Assembly (NCBI GenBank): GCA_963593685.1
Contig: CAVBBP010000003.1
Location: 3,861 to 67,860, forward strand
Direction of reading: 5' to 3'
Source: Segatella copri
Lineage (GTDB): Bacteria; Bacteroidota; Bacteroidia; Bacteroidales; Paludibacteraceae
Length of the DNA: 64,000 bases
The notes beneath the pieces are model-generated. The model was given only the letters and a program-made list of their open reading frames with translations, was not told the origin of the DNA and made no database searches. Made by a program: the position numbers and the translations under genes. The first letter of the stretch is position 1. Each line of letters begins with the position of its first letter. Shown here piece after piece: positions 869 through 61,505 of this stretch.

Positions 869-1038
869 TTTCAGATTTCAGATTTCAAATTGTAGGGACG
901 CACCGAGTGCGTCCGAAACGCTTCAACAGTTCAACGATTCAACAAATAACTAGAAACATAGAAACAAAAATTGCGGTAGCAATTTTGAGAAACAATTAGA
1001 AACTAGAAACCAGAAACTAGAAACTCAAAAACCAACCA
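869..1038 (+). repeat. mosaic intergenic repeat block (modules e-g-h-i-j-k-l)
   Basis: TTTCAGATTTCAGATTTCAAATT, g hairpin at 896..914, CTTCAACAGTTCAACGATTCAAC, CATAGAAAC, AAAATTGCGGTAGCAATTTT hairpin, TAGAAACTAGAAACCAGAAAC; same order recurs in 2728..3113, 16952..17167, 38798..39148 and reverse-complemented in 12123..12403. Confidence 0.9.
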
Positions 1039-2727
1039 ATGTCCCGCCATTCGCAAATACCAGCCGTCTATTGGGTTGCCGATCAGATGATTTCGGCGCT
1101 CGGATTTGGTACCGACCAAAACGCTGCGCAGATTTTGGCGTACCAATCGGGCGTGGTGCGGCACAGCGATACGAGCATCAGCGAAACGCCGTTCATGGCA
1201 GGGCAGATCGATTGGCAGCAAATCCCCGAAAATGCCGCTCTTACGCGCTTGGAGCGTTTGATGATTTTCGTGGTCGAACGCCTCAAAAAACAGGTGCCAG
1301 CGGTCGATTTTGCGCGCGATGATGTCGGTTTTGTGCTTTCGACTACCAAAGGCAACATCGACCTTTTGCAGGAACAGGGTTTGACCGACAAACGCATTTT
1401 TCTGCCCAATCTTGCCAAAAAAGTTGCCGATTTTTGCGGCATCACCACAGAGCCAATCGTTATTTCAAATGCTTGTATATCAGGCGTTTCTGCGCTTATT
1501 GTGGCGGCGCGACTCATCGAAGAGCGGCGCTACAAGCACATTTTGGTTGTGGGCGGCGACTTGCTCACGCAGTTTGTGGTGTCGGGTTTTCAGTCCTTCA
1601 AGTCGGTGAGCGAAAAACTTTGCCGCCCTTACGATGCGGCGCGCGACGGTCTGTCGATGGGCGAGGCGTGTGGCGCGGTTCTGCTCTCGAGCGACGAAAA
1701 TCTGCGTGGAAATCAGCCAGTTACGATTCTTGGCGGCAGCATTACCAACGATGCCAATCACATTTCGGGGCCATCGCGCACAGGCGATGGGCTGCACTAC
1801 GCCATACGCAACGCCATGGCCGAGGCGCAAGTGGTTGCGGCAGATTTGGCGTTTGTGAGCGCACACGGCACAGCCACCATTTATAACGACGAAATGGAGA
1901 GTAAATCCCTGAATTTGAGCGATTTACTCGATATTCCGACCAGCAGTCTGAAACCCTATTTCGGCCACACACTTGGCGCGTGCGGCGTGATAGAGAGCAT
2001 TCTTTGCGTGTGGCAACTGCGCCACAAAATGCTCTTTGGTACGCTCGGATTTGAAACGCTCGGCGTGCCTTATCCGATAACGGTTTCGGCTGAACATCAG
2101 GCAATTACGCATGGCGACTGCTGTCTGAAAATTGCTTCGGGCTTTGGCGGCTGCAATGCGGCGATGGTGCTGAAATTGGGAGTGGGCGAAAAAGTGGCGA
2201 ACAAATGGGACGAGTGTGCCATTAGTGTGCAGAAATCGGTGATTTTGGCATCCAATCGCCCCTTTGCCGAGTTTATCCGCGACGAATACCGTGCGTTGAA
2301 TGCGCCGAACATCAAGTTTTTCAAGATGGACGACCAGTGCAAATTGGGCTATGTGGCTGTCGAAAAACTGCTGCAAGGCGTTGATTTAGAGGACGATAGC
2401 ACACGCACTGCCATTGTTGTAGCCAACCACGCCGCCTCGCTCGACACCGATTTGCGCCACCAGCAACTGCTCAATGCGCACGAACCTGTGTCGCCAGCCG
2501 TGTTCGTTTACACGCTGCCAAACATCGTGAGTGGCGAAATCTGCATTCGGCACCACATTCAGGGCGAAAACACCTTTTTTGTGCAGAACGCCCCCGACGG
2601 CTTCACTCGCCAATACGCCGAAAATTTGCTGTGCCGTCGCATCGCCGACCGCGTCATCGTTGGCTGGTGCGAACTGCTCGGCGACCACTATACCGCGAAA
2701 TTTGATCTTTTAAGTCGCAAGATATGA
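1039..2727 (+). CDS. beta-ketoacyl-ACP synthase (KAS I/II type) with C-terminal inactive KS-like extension
   Basis: Cys-His-His contexts ISNACISGVSAL, SAHGTATIYND, FGHTLGACG; about 170 extra C-terminal residues without a catalytic Cys; last codons and stop lie in repeat module a. Confidence 0.85.
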   Translation: MSRHSQIPAVYWVADQMISALGFGTDQNAAQILAYQSGVVRHSDTSISETPFMAGQIDWQQIPENAALTRLERLMIFVVERLKKQVPAVDFARDDVGFVLSTTKGNIDLLQEQGLTDKRIFLPNLAKKVADFCGITTEPIVISNACISGVSALIVAARLIEERRYKHILVVGGDLLTQFVVSGFQSFKSVSEKLCRPYDAARDGLSMGEACGAVLLSSDENLRGNQPVTILGGSITNDANHISGPSRTGDGLHYAIRNAMAEAQVVAADLAFVSAHGTATIYNDEMESKSLNLSDLLDIPTSSLKPYFGHTLGACGVIESILCVWQLRHKMLFGTLGFETLGVPYPITVSAEHQAITHGDCCLKIASGFGGCNAAMVLKLGVGEKVANKWDECAISVQKSVILASNRPFAEFIRDEYRALNAPNIKFFKMDDQCKLGYVAVEKLLQGVDLEDDSTRTAIVVANHAASLDTDLRHQQLLNAHEPVSPAVFVYTLPNIVSGEICIRHHIQGENTFFVQNAPDGFTRQYAENLLCRRIADRVIVGWCELLGDHYTAKFDLLSRKI

Positions 2728-3113
2728 GTAGCAAGTAGCAAGAAAAATTAGGAGTGAGGAATTAGGAGTGAGGAATCTTTAGTGAGAAGTGAGCAGTGAG
2801 CAGTGAGCAGTGATGCGGCAAAGCCGCAATTTCAAATTTTATTTGATTTTTGCTCCGCTCGGCATAGTTCAAACGAGTTTGACTCTGCGCTCGCTTGTCG
2901 CACAAATTCAGAATTTCAAATTGTAGGGACGCACCGAGTGCGTCCGAAACAGTTCAACGATTAAACGATTCAACAAATAACCAGAAACATAGAAACTTAG
3001 AAACAAAAATTGCGGCAGCAATTTTGAGAAACAATTAGAAACCAGAAATTAGAAATAACTTTTTCACTTTACACACTTTATAGACTTTCAACTTTATAAA
3101 CTTTCACACTATT
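2728..3113 (+). repeat. mosaic intergenic repeat block, longest colinear copy (a-b-c-d-f-e-g-h-i-j-k-l-m)
   Basis: GTAGCAAGTAGCAAG, TTAGGAGTGAGGAATTAGGAGTGAGGAA, AGTGAGAAGTGAGCAGTGAGCAGTGAGC, GATGCGGCAAAGCCGCAAT hairpin, divergent f core, g hairpin 2927..2945, k hairpin, ACTTT words running up to the ACP start codon. Confidence 0.9.
2836..2912 (+). repeat. f core copy 1 (most divergent)
   Basis: TTTTATTTGATTTTTGCTCCGCTCGGCATAGTTCAAACGAGTTTGACTCTGCGCTCGCTTGTCGCACAAATTC aligns by eye with five other copies. Confidence 0.8.
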
Positions 3114-3371
3114 ATGGAACAACTGATTGAACAACTGAAACAGCAACTTATCGAGGCACTGAATTTGGAAGAGATGACGCCCGCCGACATCGATACCGAT
3201 GCGCCGCTTTTTGGCGCGGGCTTGGGCTTGGATTCGATTGATGCGCTCGAAATCATCTTGATTCTCGAACGCGAATACGGCATCAAACTGCCCGACCCGA
3301 AAGCCGCCAAAGCGCATTTTGCCTCGGTGCGCACACTGGCCGAATTCATCGCTGCCAACCGCACGAAATAG
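3114..3371 (+). CDS. acyl carrier protein (phosphopantetheine-binding)
   Basis: 85 aa, GLGLDSIDALEI with the conserved Ser; lies between two KS genes. Confidence 0.85.
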   Translation: MEQLIEQLKQQLIEALNLEEMTPADIDTDAPLFGAGLGLDSIDALEIILILEREYGIKLPDPKAAKAHFASVRTLAEFIAANRTK

Positions 3372-3380
3372 CAGCGAAAC

Positions 3381-3436
3381 TGACTTGCCGCAGTCAATTT
3401 TTTGAGGTAGAGTAGAGGCTCTGCCTACTGTTTTTT
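3381..3436 (+). terminator. two weak hairpin+T-run candidates after ACP (possible attenuator)
   Basis: TGACT-TGCCGC-AGTCA followed by ATTTTTT (3381..3403); GTAGAGGC-TCT-GCCTAC followed by TGTTTTTT (3412..3436); stems are short. Confidence 0.3.
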
Positions 3437-3477
3437 GGCACAAATCGCCACAAAAACTCTCCAATTCTTTCCAATGT

Positions 3478-3672
3478 TTGAAAGATTGGAAAGTTTGTAG
3501 GTTATAGTTTATAGTTTATAGTTTATAGACAAAAGAATAAAGAGTAAAGACAAAAGACCTAGGCTTTTCCCCCTTCGGGGGAAACGGGAAAGGGGGCTAC
3601 GACCATCACCAATGCGTTAAACCGATCAACCAATCAACTTTTCAACGACCAAATAACCAAATCCAAAAACTT
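3478..3672 (+). repeat. mosaic intergenic repeat block (n-o-p-q-i)
   Basis: GGTTATAGTTTATAGTTTATAGTTTATAGAC, AAAAGAATAAAGAGTAAAGACAAAAGAC, p module, AATGCGTTAAACCGATCAACCAATCAAC, AAATAACCAAATCC up to the GTG start of the next KS. Confidence 0.9.
3562..3600 (+). repeat. p module copy (5C/5G type)
   Basis: GGCTTTTCCCCCTTCGGGGGAAACGGGAAAGGGGGCTAC; TTTCCCCC pairs with GGGGGAAA around a TTC loop. Confidence 0.85.
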
Positions 3673-11640: not shown

Positions 11641-12137
11641 CCTACGAAACCAAATACGCGTCGCCGTTGGGCGTGCTGGTGCTGCAGAGCGATGGTCGCT
11701 ATTTGACGCGCCTCTTTTTTGCTGATTCGCACGCTGCCGTGAAGGGCGGGGTGCAGGTCGAAGAGAAACGCCTCCCGATTTTTGAGCAAACAGTCCGCTG
11801 GCTCGACATCTATTTTGGTGGCGCAGTGCCCGATTTCACGCCCGAATACCGCATCGAAGGGAGCACGCCTTTTCGGCAGCAGGTGTTGCAGTTGGTGTGC
11901 CAAATTCCATACGGCCAAACGGCGACCTACGGCGATTTGGCGCAGCAGATAGCCGCCGCAAACGGCCTCGAAAAGATGTCGGCGCAGGCGGTGGGTGGCG
12001 CAGTTGGCTGGAATCCCATCTGTCTTGTAGTGCCGTGCCACCGCGTGGTCGGCGCACACGGCAACCTGACGGGCTACCGCGGCGGCCTCGCACGCAAAAA
12101 GCAGTTGCTGGACTTGGAAAGAGTAGAAAGTGTGTAA
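11637..12137 (+). CDS. ogt: methylated-DNA-protein-cysteine methyltransferase
   Basis: IPYGQTATYGDLA and active-site VPCHRVVG; GC returns to host level exactly at its ATG (ATGA overlap with M2 stop). Confidence 0.9.
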   Translation: MTYETKYASPLGVLVLQSDGRYLTRLFFADSHAAVKGGVQVEEKRLPIFEQTVRWLDIYFGGAVPDFTPEYRIEGSTPFRQQVLQLVCQIPYGQTATYGDLAQQIAAANGLEKMSAQAVGGAVGWNPICLVVPCHRVVGAHGNLTGYRGGLARKKQLLDLERVESV

Positions 12138-12403
12138 AGTTTATAAAGTAAAAAGTGTGTAAAGTGTGTAAAGTTATTTCTAATTTCTAGTTTCTAATTT
12201 CTAATTGTTTCTCAAAATTGCGGCAGCAATTTTTGTTTCTAGGTTTCTGGTTATTTGTTGAATCGTTTAATCGTTGAACTGTTGAAGCGTTTCGGACGCA
12301 CTCGGTGCGTCCCTACAATTTGAAATCTGAAATTTGAAATTCTGTCATTGCGGCTCTGCCGCATCACTCCTCACTCCTAATTCCTAACTCCTCACTCAAA
12401 AAC
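12123..12403 (-). repeat. mosaic repeat block, reverse complement of the 2728..3113 order (m-l-k-j-i-h-g-e-d-b)
   Basis: GTAGAAAGTGTGTAAAGTTTATAAAGT starts inside the last ogt codons; g hairpin 12294..12312 as GGACGCACTCGGTGCGTCC; ends CACTCCTCACTCCTAATTCCTAACTCCTCACTC just before ATG 12404. Confidence 0.9.
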
Positions 12404-16951: not shown

Positions 16952-17167
16952 TGAGATTTCAAAATTTCAAATTCCAAATTTCAGAATTTCAAATTGTAGG
17001 GACGCACCGCGTGCGTCCGAACGCTTCAACAGTTCAACGATTAAACAAAACATAGAAACAGCGCGAAGCGCGAGAGACTTAGAAACAAAAATTGCGGCAG
17101 CAATTTTGAGAAACAATTAGAAACTATAAATCAGAAATCAGAAATAACCAAATCCACAACAAAAAAA
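16952..17167 (+). repeat. mosaic repeat block (e-g-h-j-k-l-i)
   Basis: g hairpin variant GGACGCACCGCGTGCGTCC at 17000..17018; AGCGCGAAGCGCGAG; AAAATTGCGGCAGCAATTTT; ends AAATCCACAACAAAAAAA before the nagB ATG. Confidence 0.9.
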
Positions 17168-19714: not shown

Positions 19715-19879
19715 TTTATAATTGTATAATTGCTTAATTTCCAATTACTTAATTATTTGAAAATTTGAAAATTTGAAGATTTGAAAATTGGGTTTGCCGC
19801 CCCGACCTTTATTGATGCGTTAAACTTATCAACTGATCAACTTATCAACTCATTTGAAACCGTGCGTAGCACGAAAAAC
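19715..19879 (+). repeat. mosaic repeat block (s-t-q)
   Basis: TAATTTCCAATTACTTAATTA, TTTGAAAATTTGAAAATTTGAAGATTTGAAAATTG, CCTTTATTGATGCGTTAAACTTATCAACTGATCAACTTATCAAC. Confidence 0.85.
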
Positions 19880-20969: not shown

Positions 20970-21195
20970 TGAGTGAGGAATTAGGAATTAGGAGTGAGGA
21001 ATTTTTTAGTGAGAAGTGAGCAGTGAGAAGTGAGCAGTGAGGCGGCGAAGCCGCAATGACAGATTTCAGATTTCAGATTTCAAAATTTCAAATTTCAGAA
21101 TTTCAAATTGTCGGATTAACCAACTCATCAAATAACCAAATAACCAAATAACCAAATCAACGATTCAACGCTTCAACAGTTCAACAATAAAAAAA
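20968..21195 (+). repeat. mosaic repeat block (b-c-d-e-i-h)
   Basis: TGAGTGAGGAATTAGGAATTAGGAGTGAGGAA, AGTGAGAAGTGAGCAGTGAGAAGTGAGCAGTGA, GGCGGCGAAGCCGC hairpin, (ATTTCAG)n, (AAATAACC)3, TTCAACG words. Confidence 0.9.
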
Positions 21196-21429: not shown

Positions 21430-21657
21430 TCGCAAGTCGCAAGAGAGTTTGAAAGTGTATAAAGTCTATAAAGTGGAAAGTAGGGATGCATCGAGTGCGT
21501 CCGAACGCTTCAACGATTAAACGCTTCAACGATAACCAAACAACAACGAAACATAGAAACAGCGCGCAGCGCGAGAAACTTAGAAACTATACGAAACAGC
21601 GCGTAGCGCAATCTGAAATTCTGAAATCTGAAATTCTGAAATTAAAAAAAAATTACC
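21427..21657. repeat. mosaic repeat block (a, m reversed, degenerate g, h, j, u)
   Basis: TAGTCGCAAGTCGCAAG begins with the stop codon; GGATGCATCGAGTGCGTCC 21484..21502; AGCGCGCAGCGCGAG; TCTGAAATTCTGAAATCTGAAATTCTGAAATT. Confidence 0.85.
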
Positions 21658-23923: not shown

Positions 23924-24251
23924 AGCGGCAAAGCCGCGATTTCAGATTGTTAGTAGCAAGATATGAGTAGCAAGAAGAGATTTTAAGAAGATAGAACATA
24001 GAACATAGACTATGACAACTTGAAACTTGAAGTCCTGAAACTCTGAATTTCTGAAACTTGAAACACAGAAACAGCGCGCAGCGACGACCAACTGCAGAAA
24101 GTTGTGGCGTGCGAAACTTTATGAACTTTATAACTTTATAAACTTGATGAACTTCTGATCAACCAATCAACTAATCAACTGATCAACTAATCAACTAATC
24201 AACCCAATCTGTAACTCTAAAACTTGAAACAATAAGAAAAACAAACAAAAT
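23924..24251. repeat. mosaic repeat block (d-a-n-u-j-m-q)
   Basis: AGCGGCAAAGCCGCG hairpin directly after the stop; AGTAGCAAGATATGAGTAGCAAG 23952..23974; AGATAGAACATAGAACATAGAC; CTGAAAC words; AACTTTAT words; (CWAATCAAC)n. Confidence 0.85.
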
Positions 24252-26006: not shown

Positions 26007-26182
26007 CCATGAAATTTTTGAAAGGTTATAGGTTAGAGGTTATCGTTTATAGAACATAGATTGTAGGGACGCACCGAGTGCGTCCGAAACGATTCAACGA
26101 TTCAACAAATAACCAAATTCACAAATCAACAGAAACATAGAAACCAAAATTGCGTTAGCAATTTTGAAAACCAACGACTAAA
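26007..26182 (+). repeat. mosaic repeat block (n-g-h-i-j-k)
   Basis: GGTTATAGGTTAGAGGTTATCGTTTATAGAACATAGA, g hairpin 26067..26085, AAAATTGCGTTAGCAATTTT. Confidence 0.9.
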
Positions 26183-28685: not shown

Positions 28686-28960
28686 CAGAATTTCAAATTT
28701 CAGAATTTTTAGTCGCAAGATGTGAGTAGCAAGTCGCAAGACAAGTGAGGAATGAGGAATTAGGAGTGAGGAATTTTTTAGTTAGAAGTGAGAAGTGGAA
28801 AACTAAGACGAAAACTTTTGATTAAGACCAAAGGCCTTTCCCCCTCTCGGGGGAAACGGGAAAGGGGGCTACAACTAGAAATAAACCTCACAGACTTTCC
28901 ACAATGCGTTAAACTTATCAACCAATCAACCAATCAACCAATCAACCAGAAATAAAAAAC
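28686..28960 (+). repeat. mosaic repeat block (e-a-b-c-o-p-q)
   Basis: AGTCGCAAGATGTGAGTAGCAAGTCGCAAG 28711..28740, GAGGAATGAGGAATTAGGAGTGAGGAA, p module, AAATAAACCTCACAGAC, AATGCGTTAAACTTATCAACCAATCAACCAATCAACCAATCAACC. Confidence 0.9.
28833..28872 (+). repeat. p module copy (5C/5G type)
   Basis: GGCCTTTCCCCCTCTCGGGGGAAACGGGAAAGGGGGCTAC. Confidence 0.85.
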
Positions 28961-30142: not shown

Positions 30143-30472
30143 GAATTAGTCGCAAGAATTTTGGAATAAAGAGTAAGGACAAAAGAATAAAGACTTTTTT
30201 AATTATCCAATTATCTAATTTCCAATTATTTAATTAGAAAAAAATGGCGGCTTTGTTGAGCGCACCTAATTCTTAATTCTTAATTCAAAATTCTTAATTA
30301 GACGCATGGCTTTTCCCCCTTCGGGGGAAACGGGAAAGGGGGCTACAACCAGAAACTTGAAACTAGAAATAGAAAACGCTTCAACAAAACTCTGAAATTC
30401 TGAAACGCTGAAACACTGAAACCGTGCGAAGCGCGAGAAATAACCAAATCCCCAACTCCCCAAATCCCCCAC
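30143..30472. repeat. mosaic repeat block (a-o-s-r reversed-p-l-u-j-i)
   Basis: TTAGTCGCAAG, AATAAAGAGTAAGGACAAAAGAATAAAGAC, ATCCAATTATCTAATTTCCAATTATTTAATTA, CTTAATTCTTAATTC, p module, CTGAAATTCTGAAACGCTGAAACACTGAAAC. Confidence 0.85.
30308..30346 (+). repeat. p module copy (5C/5G type)
   Basis: GGCTTTTCCCCCTTCGGGGGAAACGGGAAAGGGGGCTAC, identical to the copy at 3562. Confidence 0.85.
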
Positions 30473-30515
30473 ACAAAAAAAAGCAGCCGCACTCCGCATT
30501 GTGCCACCGCTTTTT
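30473..30515 (-). terminator. intrinsic terminator of the lipoprotein gene
   Basis: Minus strand reads AGCGGTGGCAC-AATGCGGA-GTGCGGCTGCT (about 10 pairs including G-U, one mismatch) followed by TTTTTTTT. Confidence 0.55.
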
Positions 30516-30541
30516 ATTAGAAAAAATCGAATCTCGGTTCG

Positions 30542-31839: not shown

Positions 31840-32215
31840 GTTTATAGGTTATATGTTAGCGTTTATCGTTTATAGAACATAGAAGATAGAACATAGAGCA
31901 TAGACAAAATAGTGTGAAAGTGAGAAGGTATGAAAGTACGAAAGTAGGAACGCACCGAGTGTGTCCGAGTAAAATTAACGATAAAAAAATGAACAATGAA
32001 TAATAGTTGTGGCTTTTGGGATACCGAAAATTTGAAATTCTGAATTTTTGCGATAAGCGAGCGCAGTGCCAAACTTGTTTGAGCAATGCCGAACGGAGCA
32101 AAAATCAAATAAAATTTGAAATTCTGAAATTACATTTCTTGCGACTTGCTACTCATATCTTGCGACTATTTAGAAACTGCGCACAGCGCAAACACAGTAT
32201 TAACAGTATTATTTT
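31840..32215. repeat. mosaic repeat block (n, m reversed, g variant, e/f/a reversed, j)
   Basis: TTTATAGGTTATATG...AGAACATAGAAGATAGAACATAGA; GGAACGCACCGAGTGTGTCC 31946..31965; reversed f core; CTTGCGACTTGCTACTCATATCTTGCGACT 32138..32167. Confidence 0.85.
32042..32114 (-). repeat. f core copy 2
   Basis: GAATTTTTGCGATAAGCGAGCGCAGTGCCAAACTTGTTTGAGCAATGCCGAACGGAGCAAAAATCAAATAAAA. Confidence 0.9.
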
Positions 32216-32230
32216 TAGGTAAAAAAAACT

Positions 32231-33511: not shown

Positions 33512-33940
33512 CAAGAAGCAAGTAGCAAGAAAAGATTTTTAGAACATAGAAGATAGAACATAGATTGTAGAGCCGTCACAATGTGGCGGCTCTGCTGTTT
33601 TTTGTTATGCAGAAGGCGCTGGGAACCGCCTAATTCGCTACGCGCCCAACAACATCACACAATTCAAAATTCTTAATTGGATGCAATTCTGTCCCCCTGC
33701 TTGAAGCGAAGCGGAAAGATAGGGGGACGAGCGAAGCGGAGGGGGTTGAAAAATCAAATCTCCAAATAACCAAATCCACAAATCACCAAAAAAGGACGTG
33801 GCATGCCGCGTCCCTACTTTCAACTTTATGAACTTTACAAACTTTCCACTTTATAGACTTTATACACTTTCAAACTTTCAAACTTTCCACACTTTACAAA
33901 CTTTTTCCGAAAAACATTTGGTGGTTACGAAAGAAAAGCG
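33499..33940. repeat. mosaic repeat block (a-n-r-p variant-i-g variant-m)
   Basis: TAGTCGCAAGTAGCAAGAAGCAAGTAGCAAG covers the stop codon; palindrome GGACGTGGCATGCCGCGTCC 33794..33813; a long ACTTT-word array ends at the rpsO promoter. Confidence 0.85.
33567..33603 (+). terminator. intrinsic terminator of gene 32231..33511
   Basis: GTAGAGCCG-TCACAATGTGG-CGGCTCTGC followed by TGTTTTTT. Confidence 0.7.
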
Positions 33941-34324: not shown

Positions 34325-34565
34325 GTGCCGCCATCGCCGCTTGTGTTAATTTTTTTTGTAACTTTGTGCTTTTATTAGTCGCAAGATGTGAGTAGCAAGA
34401 TAAATTAGGAGTTAGGAATGAGGAATGAGGAGTTTTTTTAGTGAGAAGTTAGAAGTGAATTTAATTACCCAATTATCTAATTTCCAATTATTTAATTAAT
34501 TTTTGGAAGCGTTTTGGAATGCGAAAACTCATAATTCAAAATTCATAATTCATAATTTCCCAAAA

Positions 34566-34606
34566 GGCTTTTCCCCTTTTGGGAAAACGGGAAAAGAGGC
34601 CGTAAC
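34566..34606 (+). repeat. p module copy (4C/4G type)
   Basis: GGCTTTTCCCCTTTTGGGAAAACGGGAAAAGAGGCCGTAAC. Confidence 0.8.
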
Positions 34607-34623
34607 CAGAAACTAGAAATTAG

Positions 34624-34688
34624 AATTTTTTCGATAAGCGAGCGCAGTGCCAAACTCGTTTGAGCAATGCCGAGCGGAGAAAAAATCT
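34624..34688 (-). repeat. f core copy 3
   Basis: AATTTTTTCGATAAGCGAGCGCAGTGCCAAACTCGTTTGAGCAATGCCGAGCGGAGAAAAAATC. Confidence 0.9.
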
Positions 34689-34786
34689 ATAAATTAGAAA
34701 TAAACCTCACAGACCCTTATTGATGCGTTAAACTAATCAACTCATCAACCAATCAACTCATCAACCAAAAATTAAACCAACCACTT

Positions 34787-35998: not shown

Positions 35999-36004
35999 AA
36001 AAAA

Positions 36005-36040
36005 GGTTGATCAGTTGATTAGTTGATCGGTTGATCAGTT
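36005..36040 (-). repeat. short q-word array (reversed)
   Basis: GGTTGATCAGTTGATTAGTTGATCGGTTGATCAGTT. Confidence 0.7.
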
Positions 36041-36088
36041 AAATGATTCTACAATTTTTCCTGCAATTTTTGTCAAATAGAAAGGAAT

Positions 36089-36603: not shown

Positions 36604-38811
36604 ATGAAAAAATACGACTGGAAATTTTCGCAAGTGGGCGGTGTGCCGCGTGTTAGAATAGAAACGGGCAGCGATATTGCCCATTTGGGCGAACTCGACC
36701 AAAAAATGTGGACGGTTTTGAGTTGCCCTGTGAAAGGACTCGAAATCGACGAACGCACGCTCGAACTGATGGACAGCGACCACGACGGCAAAATTCGTGT
36801 ACACGAGGTTGTTGCTGCTTCCAAATGGCTTACTTCGGTGCTTGTCAATCCCGATTTGTTGCTGAAACAGAGCAGCACGCTGCGCCTAATCGACATCAGC
36901 CAAAAGAGCGACGACGGCAAAAAAATCTACCATTCGGCCAAAGAGATTTTGAAAAATCTTGGATTGGAGAAGGAGGAGATTAGCCTTGCCGACATCGCCG
37001 ACCGCACCGCCATTTTTGCCAAAACGCAATTCAATGGCGATGGCGTTATCACCGCACAATCGACCGACGACGAAGCCGCCCAAAACGCCATTGCCGCCTG
37101 CATTCAGACCATTGGCGCGACGCCAGACCGCAGCGGAATTGACGGCGTAACGGCCGAACAAATCGCGGCGTTTTATACCGCACTTGCCGACTATGCCGCA
37201 TGGAATGCTAGTCGTTGCGACTTGCCCTACGGCGACAATACCGAAGTCGCCTTGTCGGCCTACAATGCCTTGAAAGAGAAGATTGACGACTACTTTGTGC
37301 GCTGCAAATTGGCGGCGTTCAATGCGTCGGCATTGGCCACGCTCGATGTGTCGCTGGAGCGAATCGAAAACGCCAATGAAAAAAATCTGACCGCCTGCAT
37401 GGACGAGATTGCCGCACTGCCGTTGGCACGCATCGCTGCGGCTGGACTGCCGTGCGAAGGCGGTATCAATCCTGCGTGGGAGAGCGCATTCGCAGCACTG
37501 AAACAGTTGGTTTTCGATGTCGATTTTCCGCACGCAAAAGTCATCAGCGAGGCCGAATGGCAGCAGGTGGCCGACAAATTTGCGCCTTACATCGCTTGGA
37601 AAGCCGCCAAAAAAGGCGATGCCGTGGAGCCGCTCGGACTTGATGCTGTGACGAAACTGCTAAAACAGGACAAAAAAGCCGATTTGCTCGCTCTCGTCGA
37701 GAACGACAAGGCGTTCGAAGGCGATGCCGATGCCATCGAACTGGTGGACAAACTGCTGCACTTGTGCCGCGATTTCTACACGCTGTTGCGGAATTTTGTA
37801 ACCTTCGCCGATTTTTATGTGCGCGACACAAACAAAAAAGCCATTTTTCAGGCAGGTACGCTCTATATCGACCAACGCAGTTGCGATTTGTGCCTAAAAG
37901 TGGCAGATATGGGGCGGCACAACACAATGGCGGCCGCCAGCGGTATGTTCCTGATCTATTGCGACTGCTATTCGAAGCAAAAAGACCAAACAATGAGCAT
38001 TGTGGCGGTGATGACCAGCGGCGATGTGAACAACCTGACCGTGGGCAAAAACGCCGTTTTCTACGACCGCGATGGCCTCGACTGGGACGCCACTGTAACC
38101 AAAATTGTCGATAACCCGATAAGCATCGGGCAGGCGTTTTGGTCGCCCTACCGCAAATTTGGCAAATTCATCGAAGAGCAAATCAACAAATTTGCCGCCG
38201 AGAAAGATAACAAACTCACGGGCGAAGTTACGGGTAAAATCTCCGAATCGACCGAAAAAATGGCCACTGCCGATGTGGCCGCCACGCCGCCCGCCGACAA
38301 AAAAACGCAGGCGTTCGACATCGCCAAATTCTGTGGTATCTTTGCTGCCATCGGCATGGCGTTGGGCTATATTGGCGGATTTTTGGTGTCGTGCGTTACA
38401 GGCTTCCTCGCCCTCGCTTGGTGGCAGATGCCGCTCGCACTGATTGCTATCATGCTGCTCATTTCGGGGCCGTCGATGATTATGGCGTGGCTCAAACTGC
38501 GCCGCCGCAATCTGTCACCGCTGCTCAACGCCAACGGCTGGGCGGTGAACTCGAATGTGCCTGTGAACATACTCTTTGGTGCAACGCTCACCAAAACGGC
38601 CGCCTTCCCCAAACTCAATCTGAAAGACCCATTTGTCAAACGCGGTATGCCGACATGGCGCAAAGTGCTCTACATTGTGCTGGCTGCCATCGTAGTGCTG
38701 CTGACCGTGCTGTACTTCACCGACATGCTCGCATGCGTTGGGCTGCCATTCCACCACGCCGCCGCCGATGTTGTAGAGCAAGCGGCAATGGACAGTATTA
38801 GTAGCAAGTAG
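36604..38811 (+). CDS. large uncharacterised protein with an N-terminal EF-hand loop and C-terminal TM helices
   Basis: Canonical 12-residue loop DSDHDGKIRVHE (nt 36772..36807); hydrophobic segments FCGIFAAIGMALGYIGGFLVSCVTGFLALAWW, LALIAIMLLISGPSMIMAWL, VLYIVLAAIVVLLTVLYF; I recognise no catalytic motif. Confidence 0.7.
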   Translation: MKKYDWKFSQVGGVPRVRIETGSDIAHLGELDQKMWTVLSCPVKGLEIDERTLELMDSDHDGKIRVHEVVAASKWLTSVLVNPDLLLKQSSTLRLIDISQKSDDGKKIYHSAKEILKNLGLEKEEISLADIADRTAIFAKTQFNGDGVITAQSTDDEAAQNAIAACIQTIGATPDRSGIDGVTAEQIAAFYTALADYAAWNASRCDLPYGDNTEVALSAYNALKEKIDDYFVRCKLAAFNASALATLDVSLERIENANEKNLTACMDEIAALPLARIAAAGLPCEGGINPAWESAFAALKQLVFDVDFPHAKVISEAEWQQVADKFAPYIAWKAAKKGDAVEPLGLDAVTKLLKQDKKADLLALVENDKAFEGDADAIELVDKLLHLCRDFYTLLRNFVTFADFYVRDTNKKAIFQAGTLYIDQRSCDLCLKVADMGRHNTMAAASGMFLIYCDCYSKQKDQTMSIVAVMTSGDVNNLTVGKNAVFYDRDGLDWDATVTKIVDNPISIGQAFWSPYRKFGKFIEEQINKFAAEKDNKLTGEVTGKISESTEKMATADVAATPPADKKTQAFDIAKFCGIFAAIGMALGYIGGFLVSCVTGFLALAWWQMPLALIAIMLLISGPSMIMAWLKLRRRNLSPLLNANGWAVNSNVPVNILFGATLTKTAAFPKLNLKDPFVKRGMPTWRKVLYIVLAAIVVLLTVLYFTDMLACVGLPFHHAAADVVEQAAMDSISSK

Positions 38812-38875
38812 CAAGACGAGTGAGGAGTTAGGAGTGAGGAGTGATGCGGCGGAGTTGCAATTTCAGATTTCAAAT

Positions 38876-38947
38876 TTTATTTGATTTTTGCTCCGCTCGG
38901 CATTGCTCAAACGAGTTTGGCACTGCGCTCGCTTATCGCAAAAATTC
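38876..38947 (+). repeat. f core copy 4
   Basis: TTTTATTTGATTTTTGCTCCGCTCGGCATTGCTCAAACGAGTTTGGCACTGCGCTCGCTTATCGCAAAAATT. Confidence 0.9.
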
Positions 38948-39082
38948 AGAATTTCAGATTCCAAATTGTAGGGACGCACCGAGTGCGTCCGAACGCTTCA
39001 ACAGTTCAACAATTCAACGATTAACCAAATAACCGAATAACCAAATCAACAAATAACCAGAAACTAGAAACCAGAAATTAGA

Positions 39083-39117
39083 AAAAAATAAGGACGCACT
39101 CGGTGCGTCCTTATTTT
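39083..39117. terminator. bidirectional intrinsic terminator between convergent genes
   Basis: AAAAAAATAAGGACGCAC-TCGG-GTGCGTCCTTATTTT: the g hairpin extended to a 13-bp stem, with an A-run on one side and a T-run on the other; lies between 36604..38811(+) and pepD(-). Confidence 0.75.
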
Positions 39118-39148
39118 CTACTTTACAAACTTTATAAACTTTCTACTT

Positions 39149-41969: not shown

Positions 41970-42043
41970 GGCATAATTTCTTGCCCGACCAAGCCGCACC
42001 GTAATTTTTAACTAACAAAAAGGAATTTTAACTTTAGTTGTGT

Positions 42044-42358
42044 GATTATTTGAAAATTTGAAGATTGCGGCGTTTCAACAGAAAGGACGTGGCATGCCGC
42101 GTCCCTACAACCTGAAACTTGAAACAGTGCGCAGTGCGAGAATTTTTGCGATAAGCGAGTGCAGTGCCAAACTCGTTTGAGCAATGCCGAGCGGAGCAAA
42201 AATCTTGCGAAGCAAAAACATAGAAACAAAAATTGCGTCAGCAATTTTGAGAAACCAAAAATAAACCTCACAGACCCTTATTGATGCGTTAAACTTATCA
42301 ACTTATCAACTCATCAACTGATCAACCAACTTTTCAACACTTTTTTACTTTCAACAAA
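42044..42358. repeat. mosaic repeat block (t-g variant-u-j-f reversed-j-k-q-m)
   Basis: TTTGAAAATTTGAAGATTG; palindrome GGACGTGGCATGCCGCGTCC 42085..42104; reversed f core; AAAATTGCGTCAGCAATTTT; AAATAAACCTCACAGACCCTTATTGATGCGTTAAAC plus CAAC words. Confidence 0.9.
42140..42204 (-). repeat. f core copy 5
   Basis: GAATTTTTGCGATAAGCGAGTGCAGTGCCAAACTCGTTTGAGCAATGCCGAGCGGAGCAAAAATC. Confidence 0.9.
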
Positions 42359-42364
42359 AATTCG

Positions 42365-46308: not shown

Positions 46309-46393
46309 GAGTGAGGAATTAGGAGTGAGGAGTGAGGCGGCAGAGCCGCAGAATTTCAGATTTCAGATTTCAGATTTCAAATTTCAGAATTTC

Positions 46394-46462
46394 ATTTGAT
46401 TTTTGCTCCGCTCGGCATTGCTCAAACAAGTTTGGCACTGCGCTCGCTTATCGCAAAAATTC
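46394..46462 (+). repeat. f core copy 6
   Basis: ATTTGATTTTTGCTCCGCTCGGCATTGCTCAAACAAGTTTGGCACTGCGCTCGCTTATCGCAAAAATTC. Confidence 0.9.
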
Positions 46463-46556
46463 AGATTTCAAATTGTAGGGACGCACCGAGTGCGTCCGAG
46501 AAGGTTAGCGGTTATAGGTTAGAGTTTATAGGGAACAGACAAAGAATAAGACCAAA

Positions 46557-46592
46557 GGCTTTTCCCCTTCGGGGAAAACGGGAAAAGAGGCC
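46557..46592 (+). repeat. p module copy (4C/4G type)
   Basis: GGCTTTTCCCCTTCGGGGAAAACGGGAAAAGAGGCC; TTTTCCCC pairs with GGGGAAAA. Confidence 0.8.
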
Positions 46593-46785
46593 ACTGCCAA
46601 GAAAACTAACAATGAACAATGAATAATAATTGCGGCGTTTCTGCTACCGAAACTCTGAAACACTGAAACTCTGAAACACTGAAACCCGCACGAAGTGCGA
46701 AAAACCTAGAAACTTTGAAAAAAATGGTTAGGAGAGGCATCCAAGAGCGTTAGCGTTTTTGGATGTTCTTTTTCGCTGGAAACGC

Positions 46786-48570: not shown

Positions 48571-48605
48571 CCGTTTTGGGCTTGCGTCCGAAACGGATTT
48601 TTTTT
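48571..48605 (+). terminator. intrinsic terminator after the TPR gene
   Basis: CCGTTTTGG-GCTTGCGT-CCGAAACGG (9 pairs including one G-U) followed by ATTTTTTTT. Confidence 0.75.
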
Positions 48606-48694
48606 AATTTAGAATTAAGAATTTAGAATTAAGAATTAGGCGGCAGACCCGCATCATTTCTCACTTCTCACTGCTAACTACTCACTAAAAAATT
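48606..48694. repeat. mosaic repeat block (r, d-like, c reversed)
   Basis: AATTTAGAATTAAGAATTTAGAATTAAGAATTAGG, CGGCAGACCCGC, TTCTCACTTCTCACTGCTAACTACTCAC up to the ribH ATG. Confidence 0.85.
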
Positions 48695-50815: not shown

Positions 50816-50891
50816 TAAGTTAGTTGAATTGCTCTGTTGCAAGTTGCTGTGCAGAGCGTTTTGTGCGAATAAAAGAGCTTTTTGTTGTAGT

Positions 50892-52043: not shown

Positions 52044-52048
52044 TAGTT

Positions 52049-54088: not shown

Positions 54089-54280
54089 GGGGACTTCTAT
54101 AAATTCCCCGTTTTGTAAAAAAGTTCAACAAATAATAAATTTCAGAACACTTTTGTGTGCTTTCGTTCAAGCCAAACATCTGCTAGTTCAAAATTCAAAA
54201 ATCACTACAAAGGAATTTATAGAAATCCCCTTGAAAAAATATATCGGTTTTGTTGAAATTTTGCAGCCTTAATCGGTGCT

Positions 54281-54311
54281 AATCCAAAAAAATATGCTGA
54301 TTTTTTGGATT
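54281..54311 (+). terminator. perfect 11-bp AT-rich hairpin after the nitroreductase operon
   Basis: AATCCAAAAAA-TATGCTGA-TTTTTTGGATT; an imperfect second copy AATCCGAAAAA...ATTTTGGATT follows at 54314..54346. Confidence 0.4.
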
Positions 54312-54359
54312 ATAATCCGAAAAATTGTACTGATATTTTGGATTATTGGAAATTGTTTG

Positions 54360-54367
54360 TACCTTTG
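54360..54367 (+). promoter_or_regulatory. -7 box TACCTTTG with -33 TTTG (54337..54340) for the ATPase gene 54388
   Basis: 19-bp spacing; 21 nt upstream of the ATG. Confidence 0.65.
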
Positions 54368-54387
54368 CTGTGCCGAATAGATAGCGT

Positions 54388-55536: not shown

Positions 55537-55551
55537 TTATCGTTTTGTCGT

Positions 55552-56289: not shown

Positions 56290-56293
56290 AAAG

Positions 56294-57709: not shown

Positions 57710-57710
57710 C

Positions 57711-58622: not shown

Positions 58623-58672
58623 AAACTCCCTTAAATCGCTGAAAAAGTTGTATATTTGCTTGTTCAATTGAG

Positions 58673-59699: not shown

Positions 59700-59781
59700 A
59701 ATCAAGATGCGCGCGCATCCCTACTTTCTACTTTATAAACTTTCAACTTTACGAACTTTTTCCACTTTCAAACTATTTTCG
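59700..59781 (+). repeat. mosaic repeat block (GC palindrome + m)
   Basis: GATGCGCGCGCATC 59706..59719, then CCTACTTTCTACTTTATAAACTTTCAACTTTACGAACTTTTTCCACTTTCAAAC abutting the hisS promoter. Confidence 0.8.
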
Positions 59782-59789
59782 TATCTTTG
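59782..59789 (+). promoter_or_regulatory. -7 box TATCTTTG for hisS
   Basis: CGTATCTTTGCAAG, 65 nt upstream of ATG 59854. Confidence 0.55.
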
Positions 59790-59853
59790 CAAGATGGTGT
59801 GCGCGGGTGCGCTATCGCCGTAAAGTAACGAAAAAACAGAACTTTTCACAAAA

Positions 59854-61227
59854 ATGAACATAGGAATACCCAAGGGAACACGCGATTTTTCGCCTGCCGA
59901 GATGGCAAAACGCAACTACATTTTCGATACGATTCGTGGCGTTTTTGCGCGCTACGGATTTCAGCAAATCGAGACGCCTGCGCTCGAAAACCTATCGACG
60001 CTGATGGGAAAATATGGCGACGAGGGCGACAAATTGCTGTTCAAAGTGCTGAATTCGGGCGATTTTGCCGCCAAACTTACCGACGAGGAACTGCTGGCGC
60101 ACAACAGCCGCCAACTGACCAACCGAATCGCCGAAAAAGGGCTGCGCTACGACCTCACGGTGCCGTTTGCGCGCTATGTGGTGATGCACCGCGACGAGTT
60201 GCAATTCCCTTTCAAACGCTTTCAGATACAGCCCGTTTGGCGCGCCGACCGCCCACAAAAAGGGCGTTATCGTGAGTTCTACCAGTGCGATGCCGATGTG
60301 GTGGGCTGCAATTCGCTGCTCTGCGAAGCCGAACTCATCGAGATGATCGACGAGGCGTTCAAAGCGTTCAAAATTCCTGTGGCAATTAAACTGAATAACC
60401 GCAAAATTTTGGCAGGAATCGCCGAACTTATTGGTGCTGCCGACCAGATAACCGACATCACGGTGGCTATCGACAAGATGGACAAAATCGGACTCGACAA
60501 TGTGAATGCCGAACTGCTTTCCAAAGGAATTTCGGCCGATGCAGTGGCGAAATTGCAGCCGATTTTGTTGCTCGAAGGCGACAACACGGCCAAACTTGCG
60601 CAACTGAAAACGATTTTGGCCGCCTCGGAAGTAGGGCAGAGGGGCATCGCCGAACTGGAAGAGGTGCTGGGCTATGTGCGCGCGGCCGAACTGACCAATC
60701 GCGTGGAACTCGACTTGACGCTGGCGCGTGGTCTGAACTACTACACGGGTGCTATCGTCGAGGTGAAGGCCATTGGCGTGGAGATGGGCAGCATTTCGGG
60801 CGGCGGACGTTACGACAATCTGACGGGCGTTTTTGGCTTGCCGAATGTGTCGGGCGTGGGCTTTTCGTTCGGCGCCGACCGCATCTACGATGTGCTGAAC
60901 CAACTCGACCTGTTCCCAAAAGCGACCGCCAGCGGCGTGCAGTTGCTCTTTGCCGCTTTCGACGACAAAGGGTTGAACTACTGTCTGCCGCTGTTGCGCC
61001 AAGTGCGCCGCGCTGGCATTGCGGCCGAACTCTATCCCGAACCCGCCAAAATGAAAAAGCAGATGGCCTACGCCAACGCCAAACAGATTCCGTTCGTTGC
61101 CATCGTCGGCGACAACGAAATGGCCGCCAACAGCCTGATGCTCAAAGATATGAACACCGGCGAACAACAACTCACAACCATCGAGGAAGCGATTGAAAAA
61201 GTAATTCAAATTGGGTTGATGAGTTGA
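59854..61227 (+). CDS. hisS: histidine-tRNA ligase
   Basis: [34 protein letters not shown]. Confidence 0.95.
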
Positions 61228-61505
61228 TTGGTTGATGAGTTGATAAGTTTAACGCATTAGTGTTGGTCGTAGCCCCCTTTCCCGTTTCCCCCGATAGGGG
61301 GAAAGCCTTTAGTTAATTAAGAATTTAGAATTATGAATCGTTCGCATTCAATAATGCCTTAATCTTCAAATCTTCAAATTTTCAAATCTTCAAATCTTCA
61401 AATAAAAAACTTTACACTTTATAGACTTTATACACTTTCTACTTTACGAACTTTACAAACTTTTTCACTTTCACACTTTCATACTTTCACACTAAATAAA
61501 GAAAT
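61228..61505. repeat. mosaic repeat block (q reversed-p reversed-r-t reversed-m)
   Basis: GTTGATGAGTTGATAAGTTTAACGCATT, reversed p module, AATTAAGAATTTAGAATTATGAAT, CTTCAAATCTTCAAATTTTCAAATCTTCAAATCTTCAAAT, long ACTTT-word array up to ATG 61506. Confidence 0.9.
61269..61307 (-). repeat. p module copy (5C/5G type, inverted)
   Basis: GTAGCCCCCTTTCCCGTTTCCCCCGATAGGGGGAAAGCC. Confidence 0.85.

Follow-up and report, generated by a model that had tools for sequence, protein, structure and literature searches.

Intergenic spacers built from tandem words, GTAG-tagged REP hairpins and a structured element in a Paludibacteraceae-like gut genome

Intergenic heptamer arrays, known as short tandemly repeated repetitive (STRR) sequences, have reportedly been described in cyanobacteria, and heterocystous cyanobacteria are said to hold the best-known combination of heptamer arrays, small hairpins nested inside them, and GTAG-tagged repetitive extragenic palindromes (REPs). 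The STRR units of cyanobacteria are CCCCAGT, TTGGTCA, and CAACAGT. Here we analyzed 64,000 nucleotides of DNA filed as Segatella copri (GenBank assembly GCA_963593685.1, contig CAVBBP010000003.1, positions 3,861 to 67,860; referred to below as the window). Nearly all of its native spacers are built from one shared vocabulary of 7- to 9-nt tandem words, REP hairpins, and other small modules, about 20 in all, which we denote by letters. The window resembles cyanobacteria in having intergenic arrays of 7-nt (5- to 11-nt) units that are prone to slippage and have small hairpins nested inside, as in STRRs and long simple sequence repeats (LSSRs). It also resembles them in the co-occurrence, in the same phyla, of GTAG REPs and the subclass 2.4 of REP-associated tyrosine transposases (RAYTs). 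The words here are different, and none of the Tandem Repeats Finder (TRF) consensus units of the window is a rotation of a cyanobacterial STRR unit. In addition, 8-nt words are as common as 7-nt words, and the host is an anaerobic gut Bacteroidales.

The GTAG-type REP class and its defining features were set out in 2013 (Di Nocera 2013, PMC3733652): a GT[AG]G tetranucleotide lies 0 to 2 nt 5' of the foot of a hairpin with a GC-rich stem of 5 to 13 bp. That survey listed no GTAG REPs in Bacteroidetes. The REPs of the window and its relatives share with this class and its subclass 2.4 RAYTs (Bertels group 4; Nunvar 2010; PMC3733652; PMC6006769) the GTAG at the foot of a GC-rich hairpin, compensatory stems, and very many extragenic copies (the genome-wide total is uncounted). 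They also share an HUH/Y1 gene with the motifs NHVH, WQ, and YIxQN, with one REP beside it and another in frame within it, for which 4ER8 is the best structure. They differ in being almost always single rather than inverted doublets, in being embedded in word arrays and co-oriented with transcription, and in an exact 23-mer that is common to several Bacteroidales families.

The bacterial interspersed mosaic elements (BIMEs) of Escherichia coli are also extragenic mosaics in which REP hairpins and a limited set of conserved motifs vary in number and order. BIMEs have alternating REP pairs, about 7 accessory motifs, and no tandem words, whereas we found about 20 modules, single REPs, arrays over 31% of spacer DNA, and no sequence similarity. 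An earlier note on this DNA had compared the spacers to BIMEs. The comparison holds insofar as REP hairpins occur with other motifs genome-wide; it fails for the BIME unit of two inverted REPs, since only 2 pairs were found among 93 copies. Pneumococcal BOX elements and the Correia/MITE-type elements of Neisseria are likewise modular or small nonautonomous extragenic repeats with variable units that can affect the expression of neighbors. A BOX element runs between fixed ends and has three module types (boxA-boxB(n)-boxC); Correia elements are bounded by terminal inverted repeats and show TA duplications. We saw neither arrangement here and no sequence relationship.

Closer to the words themselves are the TAACTGA heptamers found in Beggiatoaceae, Cyanobacteria, and a few Bacteroidetes, including Paludibacter propionicigenes (MacGregor 2015, PMC4679880). 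These are direct repeats in spacers, often sense oriented and directly before start codons. They consist of one dominant heptamer at moderate density, in contrast to the many words and hairpins that fill nearly all spacers here. The summary of LSSRs in PMC4679880 (Mrazek 2007) already describes intergenic short tandem arrays. Intergenic arrays of 7- to 9-nt units are in themselves a known phenomenon. Apparently new to the literature are how dense the arrays are, how large the vocabulary is, and the element that we call f. Our literature search found nothing on such a system in Paludibacteraceae. The earlier note had recognized no described family. No module has an Rfam match, but one hairpin, g, belongs to the described GTAG REP class.

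Extent of the shared vocabulary

We recovered the module families independently, and we agree with the earlier note that the native spacers are built from a shared vocabulary. Genes were called with a codon-usage model trained on the window. TRF returned 142 rows for the window, nearly all with periods of 7 to 9 and nearly all in spacers. Merging gave 79 arrays (period 7, 37; period 8, 33; period 9, 8), and 2511 of the 2606 array bases were intergenic. Tandem arrays of 7- to 9-nt words occupy 30.7% of intergenic bases versus 0.17% of coding bases. We counted 75 arrays in the real spacers, compared with a mean of 1.1 and a maximum of 4 in Markov-shuffled spacers. We also found that 14-mers with another copy at a distance of more than 150 nt make up 9.9% of the window versus 1.6% of a Markov control, and that shared 14-mers cover 60 to 97% of the named blocks. 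Among native spacers of at least 50 nt, 24 of 27 consist of at least 25% vocabulary, for a total of about 4.6 kb. The statement that the blocks contain almost no unique sequence was too strong: the coverage of the blocks lies between 0.3 and 0.97, with segments of unique promoter or terminator sequence left over. The spacer upstream of dnaA (44554-44919; 366 nt, 4% vocabulary) is the sole long native spacer free of vocabulary; other low-vocabulary native spacers are 47713-47857 (23%) and the short 63486-63568 (none). In the polysaccharide island at 49.2 to 59.7 kb, none of the 4 spacers has vocabulary.

The arrays fit the description of LSSRs and STRRs in that they are intergenic, have units of 5 to 11 nt, and are longer than expected by chance. 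The number of units is polymorphic, with indels of 7, 7, 8, and 21 nt between strains that are 96 to 99.5% identical. Beyond the words, modules recur in a long order. We found that 38819-39148 aligns with 2788-3094 at 75% over 332 nt, which confirms the colinear a-to-m order proposed for the blocks at 2728 and 38798, and that the listed sub-runs of this order also align. The block at 12123..12403 had been called an exact reverse complement; it is a colinear reversed paralogue, with 12129-12334 aligning in reverse to 3110-2904 at 83% identity. Paralogous block copies within the window are 75 to 90% alike and differ mostly in word number. We know of no description of a recurrent long colinear module order for cyanobacteria. 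The regex-based module tokenizer was too crude for transition statistics of the module grammar.

Rfam covariance models run over the whole window gave no match at gathering thresholds or at an E value of ≤1, and scans of the window for tRNA and tmRNA found nothing. Whole-spacer RNA folding gave a modest z score of -2.3 and no convincing long-range design.

Most words carry TAG, TGA, or TAA on the sense strand (for example, at 2728-2813, 2983-3056, and 39022-39084). These words mostly have a period of 7 or 8, and therefore three consecutive copies put a stop codon in every frame. The words GTAGCAA, GTGAGCA, and GGTTAGA resemble the GTAG tag. The open reading frame (ORF) at 1039-2727 ends inside a repeat (2708-2727), so that its stop codon comes from the a module (..GATATGAGTAGCAAG), and the ogt ORF at 11637-12137 runs into reversed m words (12122-12137). 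The repeats thus encode the last residues of both proteins. A thioredoxin-like ORF (21196-21429; 77 amino acids, annotated Thioredoxin_3 in the orthologous locus L089) stands alone between two vocabulary spacers, and the block given in the earlier note as 20968-21657 is therefore two spacers.

The window genome is Paludibacteraceae-like and 96 to 99.5% identical to public gut metagenome-assembled genomes (MAGs). Its gene content is Bacteroidota-like (a MurF-Alr fusion, flexirubin-type ketosynthases, and BspA-type leucine-rich repeat proteins), and the AspS homologues that NCBI names are called Paludibacteraceae. An exact lookup of the window DnaA found no match on record. We compared the window with L089 (MAG CAVDHO01, an independent assembly, 99.5% identical over 19 kb), the strains L029 and L026 (96% identical), and the strain L090 (93 to 95%, about 94%, identical). 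We also used the conspecific MAG CAVKTI01 (96% identical), from which the loci L002 to L081 come in part, and CAVFDI, a MAG of another species at about 80% identity.

In a census of the kind that the earlier note had asked for, the modules prove not to be limited to the window. The REP 19-mer occurs in at least 81 8-kb stretches of species-representative genomes, with the majority of those listed in CAVKTI01. Among the matches listed, about 40 CAVKTI01 contigs carry the hairpin, and these loci hold the whole vocabulary. Other Paludibacteraceae MAGs (CAVFDI and CAZGVF) have a sparser vocabulary. The words of L091, from a species at 80% identity, are partly different from those of the window, and the vocabulary is almost nil in L092, a relative with 87% aspS identity. 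We found neither the REP 23-mer nor the f 5' arm in IMG/VR contigs, which we searched for a phage vehicle.

Several bin names seemed to place the vocabulary in other phyla. The labels of "Acutalibacteraceae bacterium" CAVKTI01, "Flexilinea" CAVHRT01 (L050/L071/L072), and "Azospirillum sp. CAG:239" CAVEXR01 (L053) look wrong, or the bins look contaminated. CAVKTI01 is 96% identical to the Bacteroidales window, so its label must be wrong, and we rejected the cross-phylum spread that it suggested. We likewise rejected the spread suggested by the "Flexilinea" contig L050, which is orthologous to a CAVKTI contig at 77%, and by the "Azospirillum" contig, which has the same vocabulary as the window. 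Matches in Streptomyces, Gemmatimonadales, and Thiocystis were without GTAG context or vocabulary and look like chance or unrelated hairpins.

REP hairpins, RAYT genes, and structured modules

Hairpin g consists of GTAG followed by GGACGCAC-CGA-GTGCGTCC, with an 8-bp stem and a 3-nt loop, and its DNA fold has an energy of -9.3 kcal/mol (z score, -4.2). Among 134 copies in the window and the loci with an assignable orientation, 127 carry GTAG and 6 carry GTAA, giving 133 of 134; this is a count of oriented copies rather than a census of all REPs in the loci. All 8 clear copies in the window are tagged, and two more g copies in the window are degenerate or tagless. Stem variants are compensatory (GGACGCAT/ATGCGTCC and GGACACAC/GTGTGTCC). 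In unrelated rumen and gut Bacteroidales MAGs, we found the same 19-mer again behind GTAG, with a different sequence further out, and inverted or tandem REP doublets with stem variants. In 429 kb of the window and conspecific loci, none of 93 copies was intragenic, in a set of loci chosen for having a copy. These REPs lie about 105 nt past the upstream stop codon, and 5 of 93 have a T run behind them. Since the GTAG tag and the compensatory stem variants are the defining features of the class, we concluded that hairpin g, together with at least g2 and g3, is a GTAG-tagged REP element. One tagless g stem lies between A and T runs and between convergent genes (39089..39113), and by its sequence it looks like a bidirectional terminator.

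Relatives of the window carry the cognate genes. A tblastn search found a RAYT-like ORF in the Paludibacteraceae locus L076, and this ORF and the homologues P0001 to P0029 have both the HUH motif (PNHVH) and the Y motif. The motifs PNHVH, (K/A)WQ, and YI(D/E)QN(P/V) are invariant or nearly so in the RAYT alignment; the published TnpA-REP motifs are NH[IFV]H, WQ, and YIxNNP (PMC6006769). The NCBIfam model REP_Tyr_transpos (NF047646) matched at 45.6 to 57.3 bits (E values of 1e-12 to 1e-15; L076, 3e-12), and Pfam Y1_Tnp matched at 18.7 bits versus a cutoff of 23. There are 142 homologues, some of them named RayT by JGI. The best PDB sequence match is 4ER8, the E. coli TnpA-REP with a bound REP hairpin. 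An AlphaFold model made from the alignment of the homologues (pLDDT, 78; pTM, 0.73) and searched with Foldseek again gave 4ER8_A as the top hit (E value, 8.5e-7; TM score, 0.54), followed by the TnpA proteins of IS608 and ISDra2.

The RAYT loci that we compared (L076 and L082 to L088) each have one REP 20 to 40 nt 5' of the start codon. Each also has a second REP, inverted and in frame, within the ORF itself, and the REP variant co-changes with the RAYT across loci. The in-gene REP encodes DA[RL]GASLQ, which is conserved in P0001 to P0029 and absent from P0065 and P0068; the corresponding loop (residues 87 to 104) is modeled with low confidence. A REP lying within the gene is the hallmark of TnpA-REP subclass 2.4, which is plentiful among Cyanobacteria and Bacteroidetes (Quentin 2018, PMC6006769). 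We concluded that the RAYT genes of the relatives belong to subclass 2.4 and are cognate to g-type REPs, and the REP/RAYT layer is therefore known biology. L090 has a second RAYT gene, of 180 amino acids, which comes with GTAG REPs of its own (GTAGGGGCGAA...) and takes up precisely the position of the window spacer 26007-26182. In the window itself, a tblastn search for a transposase was negative, in agreement with the earlier note. In several Paludibacteraceae, the RAYT gene lies beside murC, in or next to the cell-division (mur/fts) cluster (L076, 7524-8000; L082, 10001-10552; L085, 6001-6489), and in L085 and L086 the adjoining Mur-ligase ORF has only 90 amino acids.

The f core is a unit of 64 nt across contexts, made of GATTTTTGC, TCCGCTCGGCAT, a bulged 8-bp hairpin, CTGCGCTCGCTTATC, and GCAAAAATT. 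Over 21 distinct copies, 98.5% of the cells of the structure are paired, and changes on both sides occur in 6 of 16 pairs. None of 500 shuffles was as good, and slid controls collapsed. The internal-loop sequences are nearly invariant. The ends pair as a terminal inverted repeat or stem of 8 bp, in which one change is compensatory; the flanks are repetitive or vary with context, with no target duplication readable. A covariance model of f (R1) finds 6 copies in the window and more in relatives. As judged from this covariation, f is a structured element that is not in Rfam.

True f elements also occur in lower-GC metagenome contigs of other Bacteroidales-like organisms (L105, L107, L129, and L131). 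In L105, L107, and L129, f is flanked by other heptamer words (CAGATAA and GAGAATT), and no array lies beside the L131 copy. The apical stems of the metagenome copies differ in sequence and are still complementary. In L107, two tandem word-plus-f units fill the spacer between Bacteroidales-type batA/batB-like genes. We rejected other metagenome matches of the f 5' arm, which are an unrelated sequence common to many human-gut contigs.

Two further hairpins recur. The p module is a TTTCCCCC/GGGGGAAA hairpin with a G-rich tail and, behind most copies, CTAC. In its main variant (3562-3601, 28833-28873, 30308-30347, and 61268-61307), this CTAC is the reverse complement of GTAG, and three G tracts lie past the hairpin. 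By its sequence, p could represent either another REP-like family in reverse orientation or a G-rich structure. The k hairpin is AAAAATTGCGG-n-AGCAATTTT followed by GAGAAAC (fold z score, -3.7). Modules also recur as composites: across the window and the MAG loci, d-e-f-e-g was found with identical junctions at least 12 times, and n-reverse f-CTTGCGAAGCA-l-k was found at 42121-42260 and in L017, L045, and L090.

Turnover, polarity, and features of the window

We compared the spacers of strains at graded distances. L089 reproduces 19 kb at 99.5%, including all spacers (10 compared), and the blocks are therefore not an artifact of one assembly, a doubt that the earlier note had raised. The window and L089 differ by 7 indels, all of which lie between genes, and 3 of them are whole words: a 21-nt (three-word) indel in spacer 30143..30541 and two of 7 nt in 31840..32230. 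Spacers have 3.7 substitutions per kb, compared with 2.8 for genes. At 96% (L029 and L026) and 93 to 95% (L090) identity, the unique flanks and outer modules are kept, and whole module sets differ. Spacer 48545-48694 is replaced past its terminator in a strain at 93 to 96% identity. The f core at 46398, inside an ATTTCAR array, is present in the window and absent in L026, and spacer 30143-30541 has different composites in L090. In CAVFDI, spacer 3372-3672 is absent, and spacers 869-1038 (96.7%; upstream gene, 88%) and 2728-3113 (91 to 99%) are near-identical to those of the window.

The modules had been called independent of orientation. In contrast, we found that in spacers between co-directional genes, 208 module occurrences are co-oriented with the flanking genes and 22 are opposed (about 9:1). 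Counted per spacer, 72 are co-oriented and 8 opposed, with 5 ties. The bias (co-oriented:opposed) was seen for g (38:11), a (27:2), b (27:1), d (14:1), h (27:2), l (26:2), o (29:4), and k (9:0); only e (42:27), m (18:19), and f (6:3) go both ways. Genes on the minority strand of their locus keep the same bias (18:4), and for this reason we lean toward polarity tied to transcription rather than replication, the majority gene strand per 8-kb locus being a weak proxy. The sense strand is purine rich right after stop codons (a, b, and c) and G poor before start codons (h, i, l, and o). The L+o module is sense oriented in 10 of 13 co-directional spacers and in the window usually lies just 5' of a start codon.

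The vocabulary has no fixed place in transcription units: it lies upstream of promoter boxes, in 400-nt leaders, between cistrons, and between convergent genes. It is upstream of the boxes at 33941, 42365, and 59782 and between box and start codon, 400 to 420 nt away, at 31819 and 34359. Most of it is in spacers without any TAnnTTTG box. We rejected a promoter function of the modules; all sense Bacteroidetes-type TAnnTTTG boxes are in unique sequence. The features are collected in Table 1.

Table 1. Hairpins, f cores, and spacer blocks, in window coordinates
Feature	Position	Strand	Remark
REP g	892..914	+	
REP g	2923..2945	+	
REP g	12294..12316	-	
REP g, CGC loop variant	16996..17018	+	same variant flanks and sits within RAYT P0005
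REP g, degenerate (GGATGCAT..GTGCGTCC)	21480..21502	+	L090 copy at same site perfect
REP g	26063..26085	+	
REP g, degenerate (GTAGGAACGCAC..GTGTGTCC)	31944..31966	+	
REP g	38968..38990	+	
REP g stem, no GTAG tag, TAA/TTA extension	39089..39113	.	A and T runs either side, between convergent genes
REP g	46475..46497	+	
REP g2: GTAG + GGACGCGG-CATG-CCACGTCC	33794..33817	-	
REP g2	42085..42108	-	
GTAG-tagged hairpin g3 (GGATGCGCGCGCATC)	59706..59724	-	
f core	2845..2908	+	R1, 90.1 bits
f core	32043..32106	-	R1, 94.7 bits
f core, terminal stem with compensatory G-C to T-A change	34624..34687	-	R1, 95 bits
f core	38883..38946	+	R1, 97.5 bits
f core	42141..42204	-	R1, 97.1 bits
f core	46398..46461	+	R1, 97.6 bits
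p module	3562..3597	+	
p module	28833..28869	+	
p module	30308..30343	+	
p module, variant	34566..34600	+	
p module, variant	46557..46591	+	
p module	61272..61307	-	
k hairpin	966..986	+	
k hairpin	3005..3025	+	
k hairpin	12214..12234	-	within reversed block
k hairpin	17087..17107	+	
k hairpin	26146..26165	+	
k hairpin	42228..42248	+	
Block e-g-h-l-k-l	869..1038	+	co-directional genes either side; 91% vocabulary
Full colinear block a-b-c-d-e-f-e-g-h-i-l-k-l-m	2728..3113	+	stop codon (KS gene) to start codon (ACP gene)
Terminator-like unique part, then r/s words, p, L, o words	3372..3672	+	51% vocabulary
Block m..b reversed between two + genes	12138..12403	-	97% vocabulary
Block e-g-h-n-l-k-l	16952..17167	+	L090 allele: middle swapped for 7 copies of ATAACCAA word
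Reverse e words, q, L, long o-word array reaching start codon	17978..18175	+	L090: 3' half is reverse f core instead
t words, reverse e words, L, o words	19715..19879	+	
Block b-c-d-e-i-h	20970..21195	+	upstream of small thioredoxin-like ORF; 91% vocabulary; tandem arrays fill 80%
a, reverse m, degenerate REP, h, l, n, n, reverse e	21430..21657	+	
Spacer with three unrelated alleles	23924..24251	+	window 328 nt; L029 261 nt with REP; L090 104 nt; flanks conserved
Block r-u-g-h-i-l-k	26007..26182	+	versus L029: one 8-nt word different
Block e-a-b-c-p-l-L-o	28686..28960	+	
Convergent-gene spacer: a, s, t, p, l, q, n, i, then unique terminator region	30143..30541	+	
Mixed-orientation vocabulary, ~400-nt leader	31840..32230	.	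downstream of TAnnTTTG box at 31819
a, u, GTAG-headed terminator hairpin, reverse REP g2, long m array	33512..33910	+	upstream of promoter box 33941
a-b-c-t-p-l, reverse f, L, o; ~420-nt leader	34360..34786	+	downstream of promoter box 34359
Short spacer, reverse o-word array	35999..36088	-	
Short spacer, L-like motif + o words ending at start codon	36494..36603	+	
Second long colinear block a..m	38798..39148	+	convergent genes; tagless REP with A and T runs on either side
Reverse e, reverse g2, q, n, reverse f, l, k, L, o, m	42029..42360	.	upstream of promoter box 42365
Block b-d-e-f-e-g-r-s-p-...-q-n-l	46309..46758	+	downstream of dnaA
Reverse d-c-b-like modules behind unique terminator	48605..48694	-	L026: wholly different modules
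Reverse GTAG-tagged hairpin g3 + m-word array	59706..59780	+	upstream of promoter box 59782
Reverse o, L, p, then forward words, long m array reaching start codon	61228..61505	.	

Two islands in the window, both of foreign composition, are without vocabulary in their spacers. A low-GC (33 to 44%) restriction-modification cassette at 8133-11640 has a BpuJI-type restriction endonuclease between two C5 cytosine methyltransferases. It is inserted between a flexirubin-like gene cluster and the ogt gene, and the gene model missed this cassette on account of its foreign codon usage. The polysaccharide-type locus at 49193-59677 (UDP-GlcNAc 2-epimerase, glycosyltransferases, and two AAA_14/DUF4143 ATPases) has positive GC skew, and its spacers hold repeats peculiar to it. 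One has a 32-nt unit (49215-49339; 3.9 copies) and the other a 33-nt unit (54280-54346; 2 copies), and each is upstream of an AAA_14/DUF4143 gene. Elsewhere, the gene at 32231-33511 has an internal 182-nt direct repeat (32897-33078 and 33122-33303, 78% identity), that is, an internal protein repeat, and the matching region of L090 is rearranged.

What might build the spacers

We consider it moderately probable that the spacers are a lineage-specific filler that is centered on REPs and RAYTs, prone to slippage, recombining, filtered at the transcript level, and occasionally recruited. According to this model, the GTAG REPs would be single-strand DNA substrates of HUH/Y1 RAYTs, the gene for which is present in the same lineage. 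The 7-, 8-, and 9-nt words gain and lose whole units even at 99.5% identity, as replication slippage predicts. Recombination or template switching between spacers at shared words may swap modules, along with insertion and deletion of the small hairpin elements f, p, k, d, and n. Transcript-level selection or a transcription-coupled mechanism could purge most antisense copies and leave the 9:1 ratio. A REP with a T run may be recruited as a terminator, and the G-poor o words may be recruited as unstructured leaders right before start codons. The spacers would then be mostly self-propagating filler, tolerated and at times exploited, with no dedicated regulatory code. The accumulation would be endogenous, since the low-GC restriction-modification and polysaccharide islands are without vocabulary.

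Several results weigh against this model. Our tblastn search found no RAYT gene in the 64 kb of the window or among 365 kb from the conspecific MAG, and such a gene is therefore putative for this exact genome. The RAYT scores in relatives are under the curated NF047646 cutoff of 80 bits, which we attribute to the REP-encoded insertion that splits the match. The REPs are nearly all singlets, with just two pairs lying within 300 nt, and in this they differ from the doublets of REPINs and BIMEs, which have been argued to be mobile. The RAYT-bearing relatives L082, L085, and L086 have few tandem words, and a RAYT alone therefore does not explain the arrays. For movement of the non-REP modules, no target-site duplications are readable in the repetitive flanks. 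Neither the strength of the polarity nor the CAVFDI comparison is predicted by pure junk. In that species, both near-identical spacers are 96 to 99% identical apart from word indels, and the flanking genes are 62 to 89% identical in 150-nt windows. For this near-identity, we favor recent spacer-limited exchange or assembly cross talk over long-term constraint, because paralogous blocks are only 75 to 90% alike and spacers are not slower than genes within the species.

The polarity and the conserved spacers speak for a second model, in which the vocabulary is a functional code in transcripts that was spread by selection. Purine-rich words and hairpins past stop codons would be RNA stabilizers, attenuators, or terminators. 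G-poor words ahead of start codons would offer ribosomes an unstructured place to land, in a phylum in which Shine-Dalgarno pairing is not used. The orientation follows the gene even on the minority strand, L+o is mostly in the sense orientation (o words, 29:4), and in the window this module is usually placed just before a start codon. The distance of REPs from stop codons, the five T runs, and the tagless copy between A and T runs of convergent genes also count in its favor. Two operon-internal spacers are much more conserved across species than the adjoining genes, and translational roles were proposed for heptamers upstream of start codons (MacGregor 2015, PMC4679880). However, the same modules can precede promoters, sit in leaders, or separate cistrons or convergent genes, and e, m, and f occur in both orientations. 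Strains that are 93 to 96% alike hold unrelated modules, a RAYT gene, or a shorter spacer (104 versus 328 nt) at one site. Substitution within the species is not lower in spacers than in genes, and close relatives such as L092 manage without the vocabulary. We therefore regard a functional code as rather unlikely. The recurrence of long orders instead suggests that the blocks could be decayed or partial copies of a few long composite nonautonomous mobile elements (150 to 400 nt; for example, a..m or n-f-l-k). These would move as units, with the tandem words as internal parts rather than products of local slippage. Consistent with this, the long order recurs at 2728, 38798, and, reversed, 12123, along with its sub-runs; the two composites recur, d-e-f-e-g with the same junctions; and alleles at one site differ by the composite present. 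We nevertheless hold it to be quite improbable: we see no defined ends, terminal repeats, or target duplications for the composites, paralogues differ mainly by how many words they have, near-identical strains show word indels in place, and the modules of many spacers are combined in ways that no single order contains as a sub-run.

An artifact of assembling or binning short-read metagenomes would explain why related MAG contigs break in repeat spacers (contig 71 and contig 28 of CAVFDI each stop within the 869-1038 orthologue) and why several bins are mislabeled or contaminated. The cross-species near-identity could also stem from an assembler threading the repeat of a co-resident strain. This explanation is very hard to credit, as CAVDHO01 reproduces the 10 compared spacers, CAVKTI01 and ERZ15610583, from other samples, have the same architecture with orderly unit-sized differences, and the blocks abut stop and start codons precisely. 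A more far-reaching proposal, which we think probably wrong, is that the spacers are the product of an active, transcription-polar spacer-building system of some Bacteroidales, perhaps mechanistically related to that of cyanobacteria and Beggiatoaceae. As part of this proposal, f would always lie among heptamer arrays, the word differing by taxon. The f elements and GTAG REPs would be putative cis-substrates of single-strand nucleic acid enzymes (the subclass 2.4 RAYT and a partner) that seed the tandem words and make them spread. The proposal also includes an exchange step: finished cassettes passing between species would leave highly similar spacers beside diverged genes, as in CAVFDI. Compared with these alternatives, self-propagating filler remains the model that we prefer.

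Why bacteria fill spacers with heptamers and REP hairpins has been an open question since cyanobacterial STRRs and E. coli BIMEs were described. This lineage is an extreme and tractable case, a common gut-type Bacteroidales with many strains at graded divergence, in which REPs, RAYTs, a new structured element, and word arrays can be traced site by site. The repeats break short-read assemblies and confuse binning, as seen in the three bins with such DNA that are named after other phyla, and they could serve as very fast strain-typing markers. The polarity, together with strain swapping set against cross-species near-identity, gives testable handles on whether such spacers are selfish, structural, or regulatory.

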